Below, piece after piece: positions 6,645 through 48,143 of a stretch of DNA of 64,000 nt. The notes beneath the pieces were generated by a model. It worked only from the letters and a program-made list of their open reading frames with translations. It made no database searches and was not told where the DNA came from. The position numbers were made by a program, and so were the translations under genes. Origin of the DNA: Escherichia coli (GTDB lineage: Bacteria; Pseudomonadota; Gammaproteobacteria; Enterobacterales; Enterobacteriaceae); the NCBI RefSeq assembly GCF_029227855.1, contig NZ_CP074356.1. One strand, 5' to 3'. Within the stretch, counting starts at the first letter, position 1; every line of letters begins with the position of its first letter.

Positions 6645-6800
6645 TTACAAGAACCAGGGGCGGAAATTCCAGCCCTCTCGATTGTTACGTAGCACGGACA
6701 GACTATACGCCTGATGGTCGTTCCCCATCGGGCCTGAAAACCGCAATACGCTGGGTAACAATCTTCGAGGGTAGCAGTTAACGCTGCTACCCTCTTTTTT
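6640..6800 (+). ncRNA. sroC: SroC-like sRNA processed from the gltI-gltJ spacer (GcvB sponge)
   Basis: Position at gltI 3' end/gltI-gltJ spacer ending at a strong intrinsic terminator matches the known location of SroC; 5' boundary approximate. Confidence 0.5.
6767..6800 (+). terminator. Intra-operon intrinsic terminator between gltI and gltJ
   Basis: Perfect 11-bp stem gagggtagcag/ctgctaccctc with loop ttaacg followed by tttttt. Confidence 0.8.
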
Positions 6801-13946: not shown

Positions 13947-14977
13947 TGATTCGGTTGTACCCGGAACAACTCCGCGCGCAGCTCAATGAAGGGCTGCGCG
14001 CGGCGTATCTTTTACTTGGTAACGATCCTCTGTTATTGCAGGAAAGCCAGGACGCTATTCGTCAGGTCGCTGCGGCGCAAGGGTTCGAAGAACACCACAC
14101 TTTTTCCATTGATCCCAACACTGACTGGAATGCGATCTTTTCGTTATGCCAGGCCATGAGTCTGTTTGCCAGTCGACAAACGCTATTGCTGTTGTTACCC
14201 GAAAACGGACCGAATGCGGCGATCAATGAACAACTTCTCACACTCACCGGACTTCTGCATGACGACCTGCTGTTGATCGTCCGCGGTAATAAATTAAGCA
14301 AAGCGCAAGAAAATGCCGCCTGGTTTACTGCTCTTGCGAATCGCAGCGTGCAGGTGACCTGTCAGACACCGGAGCAGGCTCAGCTTCCCCGCTGGGTTGC
14401 TGCGCGTGCAAAACAGCTCAACTTAGAACTGGATGACGCTGCAAACCAAGTGCTCTGCTACTGTTATGAAGGTAACCTGCTGGCGCTGGCCCAGGCACTG
14501 GAGCGTTTATCGCTGCTCTGGCCAGACGGCAAACTGACATTACCGCGCGTTGAACAGGCGGTGAATGATGCCGCGCATTTCACCCCTTTTCATTGGGTTG
14601 ATGCTTTGTTGATGGGAAAAAGTAAGCGCGCGTTGCATATTCTTCAGCAACTTCGTCTGGAAGGCAGCGAACCGGTTATTTTGTTGCGCACATTACAACG
14701 TGAACTGTTGTTACTGGTTAACCTGAAACGCCAGTCTGCCCATACGCCACTGCGTGCATTGTTTGATAAGCATCGGGTATGGCAGAACCGCCGGGGCATG
14801 ATGGGCGAGGCGTTAAATCGCTTAAGCCAGCCGCAGTTACGTCAGGCCGTGCAACTCCTGACACGAACGGAACTCACCCTCAAACAAGATTACGGTCAGT
14901 CAGTGTGGGCAGAGCTGGAAGGGTTATCTCTTCTGTTGTGCCATAAACCTCTGGCGGACGTATTTATCGACGGTTGA
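13946..14977 (+). CDS. holA: DNA polymerase III delta subunit
   Basis: 343 aa; TGATG overlap with lptE; conserved lptE-holA-nadD order. Confidence 0.93.
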
Positions 14978-26332: not shown

Positions 26333-26363
26333 AAAAAACCCGCTTTTTGAAGCGGGTTTTTTT
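26333..26363. terminator. Bidirectional intrinsic terminator between convergent lipA and tatE
   Basis: aaaaaacccgct-ttttga-agcgggtttttt, symmetric A/T tracts. Confidence 0.8.
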
Positions 26364-27616: not shown

Positions 27617-28000
27617 GTGTTACAACTTCTTTTAGCAGTTTTTATTGGCGGTGGTACGGGAAGCGTGGCGAGATGGCTGTTAAGTATGCGATTTAACCCG
27701 CTGCATCAGGCGATTCCGTTGGGGACGCTGGCTGCAAACCTGATTGGGGCATTCATCATAGGAATGGGATTCGCCTGGTTTAGCAGGATGACGAACATTG
27801 ATCCAGTGTGGAAAGTATTAATCACCACCGGATTTTGTGGCGGTCTAACAACCTTCTCAACATTTTCGGCAGAAGTAGTGTTTTTGTTACAAGAGGGCCG
27901 CTTAGGCTGGGCGTTACTGAACGTTTTCGTCAACCTTTTGGGGTCTTTTGCCATGACCGCACTGGCTTTCTGGCTGTTTTCCGCCTCAACCGCACACTAA
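27617..28000 (+). CDS. crcB: Fluoride channel CrcB/FluC
   Basis: 127 aa, four TM helices, GTG start. Confidence 0.92.
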
Positions 28001-40469: not shown

Positions 40470-40503
40470 GCCCGCCAGGTAAGCCCACCTGGCGGGCTTT
40501 TTT
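40470..40503 (+). terminator. Intrinsic terminator after citT
   Basis: gcccgccaggt-aagccc-acctggcgggc then tttttt. Confidence 0.8.
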
Positions 40504-45180: not shown

Positions 45181-45350
45181 GTTTATCTCCTGGGCTTTAA
45201 ACATCATCATGCAAGCGGCCTCTGCGGCTACCTGGATGCAGCTTGCATCATGGTGCGGGGAAGAAAATCGGGTGCCGCAGCACCCGAAGAATTAGGTGAA
45301 TTTCCGAAGTATTTCGCGCCGGAGTTGGTAGCGCGAAAGACGAAGGAAAT

Positions 45351-45914
45351 TTAGATTTTACCAACCAGGTCCAGAGACGGAGCCAGAGTTGCTTCACCTT
45401 CTTTCCATTTAGCCGGGCAAACTTCACCTGGGTGAGAAGCTACGTACTGTGCTGCTTTGATTTTACGCAGCAGGTCAGACGCGTCACGGCCAATGCCTTC
45501 AGCGGTAACTTCGATTGCCTGGATGATACCCTGCGGGTCAACAACGAAGGTCGCACGGTCAGCCAGACCTTCATCTTCACGCATGTTGTCGAAGTTACGG
45601 GTCAGGGCGCCAGTCGGGTCGCCGATCATCGCATATTTGATTTTAGCGATGGTTTCAGAGCTGCTGTGCCATGCTTTGTGGGTGAAGTGAGTATCGGTAG
45701 ATACTGCGTATACGTCTACGCCCAGTTTCTGCAGTTCTTCGTAGTGGTCAGCAACGTCACCCAGTTCGGTCGGGCATACGAAAGTAAAGTCAGCCGGGTA
45801 GAAGAAGAAGACGCTCCAGCGGCCTTCGGTATCTTTTTCGGTGATTTCGATGAATTCGCCGTTTTTGAATGCCTGGTTTTTAAAAGGTTTAATTTTGGTG
45901 TTAATCAAGGACAT
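45351..45914 (-). CDS. ahpC: Alkyl hydroperoxide reductase subunit C (2-Cys peroxiredoxin)
   Basis: 187 aa; peroxidatic Cys in FTFVCPTE and resolving Cys near C-terminus. Confidence 0.96.
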
Positions 45915-46285
45915 CTATACTTCCTCCGTGTTTTCGATGAGATGTAAGGTAACCAATTTTTGCCGATTCGGCTAATGCGTTTCCATTATCAAATCGATAA
46001 GTTTTACCTTACAACCTTCGTAAGACAACTTTGTGAACTTTGCACCGCCAGCGGCGATAAAAAGTAAAATGGCCCCCTTTCCAGGTGACCGTGTAATCTG
46101 AACTACCCTTTGGTATCTTCAGCGCCTGCCTGCAGGCTGAGGTGTTGCCCTTACAAATGCAACAACGACATGGATTACAACACCCTCATAAACAAAGGGC
46201 AATCACCTGATCTAAGCTCTTACCTATGACAGTGATAGGTTATGCCTTTTACCCGACTTTTGCACTGACTGAAAAGGACAAATTA

Positions 46286-47032
46286 ATGTTAAAAAAGATA
46301 CTTTTACTGGCTCTGCTTCCTGCAATCGCCTTCGCAGAGGAACTTCCTGATCCAGTAAAAGCGATTGAAAAACAGGGTATTACGATCATCAAAACATTCG
46401 ATGCTCCCGGAGGAATGAAAGGTTATCTCGGAAAGTATCAGGATATGGGCGTCACCATCTACCTGACTCCAGATGGTAAGCACGCTATCTCCGGTTACAT
46501 GTACAACGAGAAAGGTGAAAACCTGAGTAACACACTTATCGAAAAAGAAATTTACGCACCAGCCGGACGCGAAATGTGGCAACGGATGGAACAATCCCAC
46601 TGGCTCCTCGACGGTAAAAAAGATGCGCCGGTCATTGTCTACGTCTTCGCCGATCCTTTCTGCCCATATTGTAAACAGTTCTGGCAGCAGGCTCGTCCGT
46701 GGGTAGATTCTGGCAAAGTGCAATTAAGAACATTGTTGGTTGGCGTTATCAAGCCAGAAAGCCCGGCGACAGCAGCGGCAATTCTTGCCGCCAAAGATCC
46801 CGCAAAAACCTGGCAAGAATATGAAGCCTCTGGTGGCAAGCTTAAGCTAAACGTGCCTGCAAACGTAAGTACAGAGCAAATGAAAGTGTTAAGCGATAAC
46901 GAGAAACTGATGGACGATCTGGGGGCAAATGTCACGCCAGCTATCTATTACATGAGTAAGGAAAATACACTGCAACAGGCCGTGGGGTTGCCCGATCAGA
47001 AAACGCTTAATATCATTATGGGGAATAAATAA
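46286..47032 (+). CDS. dsbG: Periplasmic thiol:disulfide oxidoreductase DsbG
   Basis: 248 aa from [17 protein letters not shown]; CPYC active site; in-frame upstream ATG at 46226. Confidence 0.92.
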
Positions 47033-47240
47033 AAGATAATTCATGGATGGTTGAACTATATCCCTGCTTTTCAACCATCCTAAAAAAGCATGAATTGCTC
47101 GCTCTGCCCTAAGTGGCTGTGCTATTTTAGTAAAACTTAATCCTGAGTTAAGCAAAAAAACATAATCAATAAAAATATATACGCAAAAAACATTGATTAA
47201 GTGAATATACCATGGAAGAAAAATATAACCGGAGTAGTGT

Positions 47241-48143
47241 ATGGCCAATCTCTACGACTTGAAAAAGTTCGACTTAAATCTTCTTGTCATATTTGAGTGT
47301 ATTTATCAGCATTTAAGCATTAGCAAGGCTGCTGAATCACTATATATCACCCCGTCAGCCGTGAGCCAGTCGTTACAACGCTTACGTGCGCAATTTAATG
47401 ACCCTTTATTCATTCGCTCAGGAAAAGGTATCGCGCCGACGACGACAGGGTTAAATCTGCATCACCATCTTGAGAAAAACCTCAGAGGCCTTGAACAAAC
47501 AATTAATATAGTCAATAAGTCCGAACTAAAGAAAAACTTTATTATCTACGGCCCTCAGCTCATTTCTTGCTCTAATAATAGTATGCTGATCCGCTGCCTA
47601 CGGCAAGATGCCTCTGTCGAGATTGAGTGCCATGATATCCTCATGTCAGCAGAGAATGCTGAAGAACTGTTGGTTCACCGCAAAGCCGATCTGGTGATCA
47701 CCCAAATGCCAGTGATCAGCCGTTCCGTCATTTGCATGCCATTGCATACAATTCGCAATACTCTAATTTGTAGTAATAAGCATCCGCGAATTACTGACAA
47801 TAGCACTTATGAACAAATTATGACAGAAGAGTTCACCCAATTAATATCCAAATCAGCAGGAGTTGATGATATTCAAATGGAAATAGACGAGAAGTTTATG
47901 AATCGCAAAATTTCATTTCGTGGTTCCTCTTTGCTGACAATCATTAATAGCATTGCAGTTACAGATTTACTGGGAATAGTCCCCTATGAACTTTATAACT
48001 CCCACCGTGACTTTCTTAATTTAAAAGAGATAAAACTAGAACATCCGTTACCTTCAATAAAGCTTTACATTTCCTATAATAAATCTTCTTTAAATAATTT
48101 GGTGTTCTCCCGATTTATTGATCGTCTAAATGAGAGTTTTTGA
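47241..48143 (+). CDS. ybdO: LysR-family transcriptional regulator YbdO
   Basis: 300 aa; N-terminal LysR HTH; strongly AT-rich coding sequence. Confidence 0.9.
   Translation: MANLYDLKKFDLNLLVIFECIYQHLSISKAAESLYITPSAVSQSLQRLRAQFNDPLFIRSGKGIAPTTTGLNLHHHLEKNLRGLEQTINIVNKSELKKNFIIYGPQLISCSNNSMLIRCLRQDASVEIECHDILMSAENAEELLVHRKADLVITQMPVISRSVICMPLHTIRNTLICSNKHPRITDNSTYEQIMTEEFTQLISKSAGVDDIQMEIDEKFMNRKISFRGSSLLTIINSIAVTDLLGIVPYELYNSHRDFLNLKEIKLEHPLPSIKLYISYNKSSLNNLVFSRFIDRLNESF

Follow-up and report, generated by a model that had tools for sequence, protein, structure and literature searches.

A single-copy hairpin behind dsbG of Escherichia coli is conserved for its base pairing and most likely caps the mRNA 3′ end

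The stop codon of dsbG in Escherichia coli is followed by a hairpin without a U-tract, in which natural selection maintains the base pairing and not the sequence of the arms. We analysed this hairpin in its genomic context, a stretch of 64,000 nucleotides (hereafter the window), and in orthologous loci of related genera. It is a real, single-copy, conserved and ordinary element that most likely caps and protects the mRNA 3′ end. With a probability of roughly 0.6, we read it as the protective 3′-end stem-loop of a factor-terminated dsbG mRNA.

The name dsbG is the one that RefSeq gives to the gene at identical or nearly identical E. coli loci, and homologues are named DsbG as well. The locus is arranged as ahpF-ahpC / dsbG-ybdO(citR)-ybdN-ybdM, with ahpCF on the minus strand and all genes from dsbG onward on the plus strand, and ybdO/citR starts with an ATG at 47241, leaving a spacer of 208 nt behind dsbG. 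In MG1655, the hairpin is located at 637,779-637,814 on the minus strand. The first-pass annotation had described a perfect 11-bp inverted repeat with a 14-nt loop, and this description holds both when the arms are read directly and in an independent repeat search (Table 1). Its placement of the stem start at the 13th nucleotide past the dsbG stop is likewise correct (12 nt lie between the stop and the first stem base), and there is indeed no T-run adjoining the stem on either strand. The plus strand reads on with TAAAAAAG, containing a single T in the first 8 nt after the stem, and the minus strand with ATGAATTATCTTTT, where the T-rich part begins 10 nt from the stem. The change to AT-rich sequence noted at this boundary was also recovered, with a GC content of 0.32 at 47000-47299 vs. 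about 0.5 within dsbG. Five of the 11 stem pairs are G-C (arms 45% GC). Folding of the 86-nt RNA 47025-47110 gave −19.6 kcal/mol (z = −4.1), and in this predicted fold an outer helix, missed in the first-pass annotation, lengthens the stem across an A-rich bulge of 8-9 nt. The outer helix is specific for E. coli: it is kept in the aligned E. coli alleles, absent from other Escherichia species, and displays no covariation.

Table 1. Coordinates of the dsbG 3′ hairpin and of neighbouring features in the window.
Feature	Position	Strand	Basis and remarks
dsbG CDS	46286..47032	+	248 aa from the annotated start; stop TAA at 47030-47032; ORF list
Outer helix, 5′ half (AATTCAT), predicted only	47038..47044	+	MFE fold of 47025-47110; pairs with 47090-47096
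5′ stem arm GGATGGTTGAA	47045..47055	+	Sequence and repeat search; covaries with the 3′ arm across genera
Loop CTATATCCCTGCTT, 14 nt, G-poor	47056..47069	+	Sequence and length differ among strains and species
3′ stem arm TTCAACCATCC	47070..47080	+	Sequence and repeat search; covariation with the 5′ arm
A-rich tail TAAAAAAGC, where a U-tract would be	47081..47089	+	Bulge between inner and outer helices (predicted fold)
Outer helix, 3′ half (ATGAATT), predicted only	47090..47096	+	MFE fold of 47025-47110; pairs with 47038-47044
Extended −10 of the ybdO/citR promoter (TGcTATTTT)	47120-47128	+	Context, outside the hairpin
ybdO TSS	47134	+	107 nt before the ATG at 47241; PMC4720273
Predicted CitR/YbdO operator CTTAAtcctgagTTAAG	47136..47152	+	Fig. 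S2 of PMC9068703, matched to the window sequence

Perfect inverted repeats of at least 11 bp with loops of 3-20 nt are overrepresented in the window, with five distinct cases vs. a mean of 0.37 in 30 dinucleotide-preserving shuffles. The other perfect repeats of at least 11 bp are located at 26333-26362, 6767-6794, 40470-40497 and 13972-14003, and the one at 26333-26362 (AAAAAACCCGCTT/AAGCGGGTTTTTT) looks like a bidirectional intrinsic terminator. The neighbouring ahpC-ahpF spacer contains two 21-nt imperfect inverted repeats (45202-45255 and 45299-45351; 81% complementary, loops of 11-12 nt). A match to the enterobacterial sRNA STnc70 (Rfam RF02069; 44.1 bits vs. a gathering score of 40; E = 5e-7) was found at 46059-46152 on the minus strand, i.e. 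in the divergent ahpC-dsbG intergenic region, on the ahpC strand and upstream of ahpC.

Orthologous loci were identified via DsbG homologues in E. marmotae, E. albertii, Escherichia sp. E4736, E. fergusonii, a Citrobacter multispecies allele, C. koseri, C. rodentium, C. farmeri, Pseudocitrobacter, Yokenella, Scandinavium and Salmonella, and the gene order ahpF, ahpC, dsbG, LysR gene, ybdN, ybdM is conserved across them. Folding revealed a hairpin of 8-16 bp that starts 5-12 nt past the dsbG stop in 12 of the 13 species-level loci, the sole exception being Salmonella with no orthologous hairpin at the dsbG 3′ end. Hairpin-only energies range from −11 to −20 kcal/mol, and z-scores from −2.4 to −7.0 in 11 of the 12 hairpin loci, with C. 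koseri at −1.5. The arm sequences change from species to species, e.g. GGATGGTTGAA in E. coli, GGATAACTGAAA in E. albertii, ATGAGTAGCTGAT in E. fergusonii, GATGAGTGATTG in Citrobacter and AGTTAATCAGAGTAAG in Yokenella, and CAGGGTGATTG is also found among the orthologues. Loops are unrelated in sequence and 6-23 nt long, in most cases 11-16 nt. No U-tract follows the stem in ten of the 12 species-level hairpins; a run of four U is present only in Pseudocitrobacter and C. koseri, and the 8 nt after the stem contain one to three U except in C. rodentium (four) and Pseudocitrobacter (six). The loci of C. farmeri and Scandinavium lack ybdO, so that dsbG is followed by ybdN, and the hairpin is still present there; thus, it belongs to dsbG and not to the ybdO promoter. 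R1, a covariance model derived from the orthologous loci, did not recognise the hairpins of Yokenella and Scandinavium and found nothing in Salmonella, and the former two are positional analogues by folding, not aligned homologues under R1.

The dsbG-ybdO spacer of Salmonella enterica is 316 nt long, and its fold is not unusual (z = −1.1). It contains a GC-richer stretch of about 110 nt between CCACGCC and GGCGTGG that may represent an insertion. The gene ybdO/citR itself decays repeatedly: it carries a frameshift in E. coli YDC107, is broken into two ORFs at the loci of Salmonella and Yokenella, and is absent in C. farmeri and Scandinavium.

Selection on pairing is evident from the alignment of 13 sequences by MAFFT, in which the arms are in register. 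RNAalifold finds the core helix unaided, with double compensatory changes in seven of nine pairs, and double changes are present in eight of the 11 pairs of the E. coli stem. Across these 11 pairs, 93.7% of the cells are paired vs. 80.4% in column shuffles (none of 500 reaching the observed value), a fraction that is somewhat inflated by taking the structure from one of the sequences; the double-change count and the RNAalifold result are independent of this inflation. The covariation score was 0.569 vs. 0.293 in the shuffles (again none of 500 reaching it), and register-shifted controls with the 3′ partners slid by one to three columns were only 25-52% paired. As the arms turn over yet stay complementary and the spacer between them varies, selection acts on pairing, most simply in the RNA of the dsbG 3′ UTR.

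Several observations point to the plus-strand RNA as the selected structure. The only known transcript across the hairpin is that of dsbG, and ten of 14 hairpins are more stable when folded as plus-strand RNA. Internal non-Watson-Crick pairs comprise five G.U on the plus strand (E. marmotae, E. fergusonii, Yokenella, Pseudocitrobacter and Scandinavium) vs. one A.C (C. rodentium), a count of five vs. one that is not significant alone, so that the assignment of the strand is suggestive. A terminator on the minus strand for antisense transcripts was considered as well and rejected, given that the T-rich stretch is not next to the stem and that the wobble pairs favour the plus strand.

Among E. 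coli strains, the spacer between dsbG and ybdO varies to an unusual degree, the most distant alleles being about 84% identical, in agreement with Higashi et al. 2016. We aligned eight sequences that represent several allele types and are 84-91% identical across the spacer. Among these alleles, the only change in the arms affects the outermost pair (outermost G) in one allele type, six or more loop positions differ, and a U-tract follows the stem in no E. coli allele. Other parts of the region vary too. Over 361 nt, 1,324 of 5,420 E. coli genomes are only 80-90% identical, and the block 47103-47118 is almost wholly swapped between allele types (CTCTGCCCTAAGTGG vs. TAACCCACCTGACAG). In strain 510016, an IS1A insertion replaces ybdO/citR along with the hairpin.

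Whether the element is single-copy had been raised in the first-pass annotation, and the paired element indeed occupies one place per genome across about 5,350 complete E. coli genomes. A query of 59 nt with the hairpin at its centre (blastn, 11-nt words, E up to 10) hit 5,366 places in 5,356 of 5,426 complete genomes, with a median of one and a maximum of two places per genome, and a 361-nt query likewise gave one place per genome in about 5,420 of the 5,426. A lone 11-mer arm is expected about twice by chance in each E. coli genome, which leaves a search for arm copies with little power; since a single arm recurs by chance, the paired element provides the informative copy test. R1 scored this site with 65 bits and detected no second site in the 64-kb window, a 17-bit match on the minus strand being the palindrome itself. 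A loose arm pattern, ATGGTTGAAN{4,30}TTCAACCAT, was also run on genome contigs; with 18 specified bases, 27 gap sizes and 298 Gb, about 120 chance matches are expected, and the scan was uninformative, with unrelated phyla and no Enterobacteria among the matches listed. In the same scan, five contigs of one Sphingobacterium cavernae genome shared an identical 40-nt span containing ATGGTTGAA...TTCAACCAT, which points to a dispersed repeat family unrelated to the hairpin.

Release of E. coli RNA polymerase at a hairpin requires a weak rU:dA hybrid, so that a stem-loop lacking a U-tract is not sufficient for it. Because it lacks a U-tract, the dsbG hairpin would not itself be the point where RNA polymerase leaving dsbG is stopped. 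Release would take place farther downstream, within ybdO or the untranslated, AT-rich and H-NS-bound spacer before it, with Rho as the most plausible factor and H-NS as a possible aid. The 3′-to-5′ exonucleases PNPase and RNase II would then trim the transcript back to the stem, and with the stem 12 nt beyond the stop this would result in a defined and stable 3′ end a few nucleotides past the hairpin and an intact coding region. We thus infer that the hairpin would act as an exonuclease barrier and that termination of dsbG would depend on Rho/H-NS.

Such an arrangement resembles a published class of transcript ends. In E. coli, Rho-dependent transcripts were found to end just past stable stem-loops that lack U-rich tails and are followed by a mild C-over-G bias, and evidence was given that such structures shield the RNA from PNPase and RNase II (Dar and Sorek 2018, PMC6061677). 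Filaments of H-NS are reported to lie at the same places as Rho termination sites and to assist in termination (Kotlajich 2015, PMC4337669), and both ybdO and its upstream region are bound by H-NS (PMC4720273). The dsbG hairpin shares with the class of Dar and Sorek a stem-loop just past the gene that is more stable than background, a tail that is not U-rich, the position of a low-expression gene beside an H-NS-bound region, the proposed role as exonuclease barrier and, in most Escherichia orthologues, the mild C-over-G bias downstream. However, with 14 nt (11-16 nt in most orthologues) its loop exceeds the terminator-like loops described there, the stem runs into an A-rich tract, and the window allele has a weak rut signal; the hairpin is a candidate member of the class. 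In the 100 nt past the hairpin, the window allele has 16 C vs. 14 G and C/G ratios over 80 nt of 0.75-1.43 before ybdO, i.e. a weak rut-type bias, while the other Escherichia loci have 15-20 C vs. 9-11 G and Scandinavium 24 vs. 5. Neither dsbG nor any E. coli position 6377xx is listed in the supplementary 3′-end data of Adams 2021 and TERMITe 2025, and nothing relevant on dsbG in connection with bicyclomycin, a terminator or its 3′ UTR was found in the literature. The protective reading does not firmly account for the consistently large and G-poor loop or for the A-rich tail of Escherichia.

Other RNA-level functions were weighed against this protective role. A non-canonical intrinsic terminator or pause hairpin that insulates the ybdO promoter from dsbG read-through seems unlikely. 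Like a canonical terminator, the hairpin is stable, lies directly past the stop codon and has a stem of usual length and stability; insulation would be useful with the ybdO promoter only about 40 nt downstream, and the U4 runs of Pseudocitrobacter and C. koseri suggest a terminator-like ancestry, with weak intrinsic termination possible there. On the other hand, the near-general lack of a U-tract across species-level hairpins and its complete lack among E. coli alleles, the A-rich flank, the atypical loops of 11-16 nt, the stem of only 45% GC and the established need for an rU:dA hybrid for release at a hairpin all speak against termination at this place. The view of the first-pass annotation that the repeat is unlike a standard intrinsic terminator was therefore borne out: besides the missing U-tract and the 14-nt loop, a consensus scan calls nothing on either strand, and the repeat has neither five or more T in 8 nt from 0-2 nt after the stem nor a 3-8 nt loop on a GC-rich stem. 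A little less probable still is a specific regulatory element of the dsbG 3′ UTR that offers its loop or A-rich tail to an RNA-binding protein (e.g. ProQ, Hfq) or a small RNA and so controls stability or translation of the dsbG mRNA. The conserved stem with an unusually large, G-poor and unstructured loop in most genera and the A-rich tail conserved within Escherichia would fit this role, but a loop that is not conserved in sequence even within E. coli and varies from 6 to 23 nt presents no motif to recognise. Furthermore, no link was found in the literature and no Rfam family matches, the hits at the hairpin being at chance level (Plastid-psbM with 21.8 bits vs. a gathering score of 52.7; snopsi18S-1854 with 20.5 vs. 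40). We would give a slightly lower chance yet to a hairpin that goes beyond passive blocking of exonucleases and serves as a dedicated insulator or a regulatory RNA where the OxyR-driven dsbG transcript meets the H-NS-silenced ybdO (citR) promoter; it could act by binding of a chaperone to the 3′ UTR or by setting the oxidative-stress-induced read-through into ybdO. YbdO has been reported to repress ahpC, katG and oxyR (PMC11681634), and this repression would close a feedback loop if the insulator function were true.

Functions at the level of DNA are less probable than those of the RNA. The first-pass annotation had proposed a protein-binding element or a REP-type sequence, and neither proposal stood up. 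A protein site could belong to the upstream element through which H-NS regulates ybdO or serve as operator for a dimeric regulator such as CitR/YbdO, and the repeat is indeed located at about −90 to −54 of the ybdO TSS, shows dyad symmetry and precedes a LysR-family gene, like a LysR-type operator (T-N11-A dyad). Deletion of −250 to −176 from the ybdO ATG ('URE') raised ybdO-lac expression and weakened H-NS repression (Higashi et al., PMC4720273); in the window this deletion corresponds to 46991-47065 and eliminates the left arm along with the greater part of the loop. As it cuts through the hairpin, a DNA-level role keeps a small probability, and we regard it as very unlikely overall. The arms are replaced between species with complementarity kept and a spacer of 6-23 nt, and this turnover with variable spacing argues for a base-paired structure and not for a fixed recognition sequence. 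Moreover, the half-sites are 25 bp apart centre to centre with a 14-nt, variable spacer and without sequence conservation, unlike in LysR-type operators, the hairpin is kept past dsbG where ybdO is absent, and the AT-rich tract just upstream (47024-47044) is a more natural H-NS target than arms of 45% GC. Identity with the CitR/YbdO operator was rejected, since the arms are not conserved and the published box is found elsewhere: with CTTAA-N7-TTAAG at +3 to +19 of the TSS, it forms a distinct T-N11-A dyad. The promoter motif TGnTATTTTAG is conserved in the Escherichia, Citrobacter and Salmonella loci, 34-40 nt past the hairpin. The A-rich tail falls at about −53 to −45 of the ybdO TSS (TSS from PMC4720273), and this position in the UP-element zone may be the reason why an A-tract and not a U-tract follows the stem. 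Extremely improbable, finally, is a REP-type or other dispersed repeat, or a palindrome by chance. An intergenic inverted repeat past a gene end is a typical place for REP/BIME elements, and REPs can also stabilise the upstream mRNA against exonucleases, which makes the proposed function similar. REP elements, however, are GC-rich imperfect palindromes with tens to hundreds of related copies per genome, whereas the dsbG hairpin is single-copy, not GC-rich, and evolves in place with its gene and not as a dispersed family. A REP core (GCCKGATGCGRCG-like, one mismatch allowed) matched in the window only at 27699-27711 and not at the hairpin, no repeat_region is annotated between citR and dsbG in MG1655, and coincidence is ruled out by conservation with covariation.

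Beyond annotation, the hairpin at the dsbG 3′ end carries little weight: the dsbG transcription unit gains a defined 3′ boundary element, and three neighbours that are easily confused, i.e. the dsbG 3′ hairpin, the extended −10 promoter of ybdO and the CitR box, are now separated. It also calls for caution in reading the ybdO 'URE' deletion, as the endpoint at −176 falls inside the hairpin. More generally, it offers a clean case of a 3′ hairpin without a U-tract that is visibly selected for pairing across several enterobacterial genera, and supports the view that such hairpins are functional elements of mRNA ends and not incidental palindromes.
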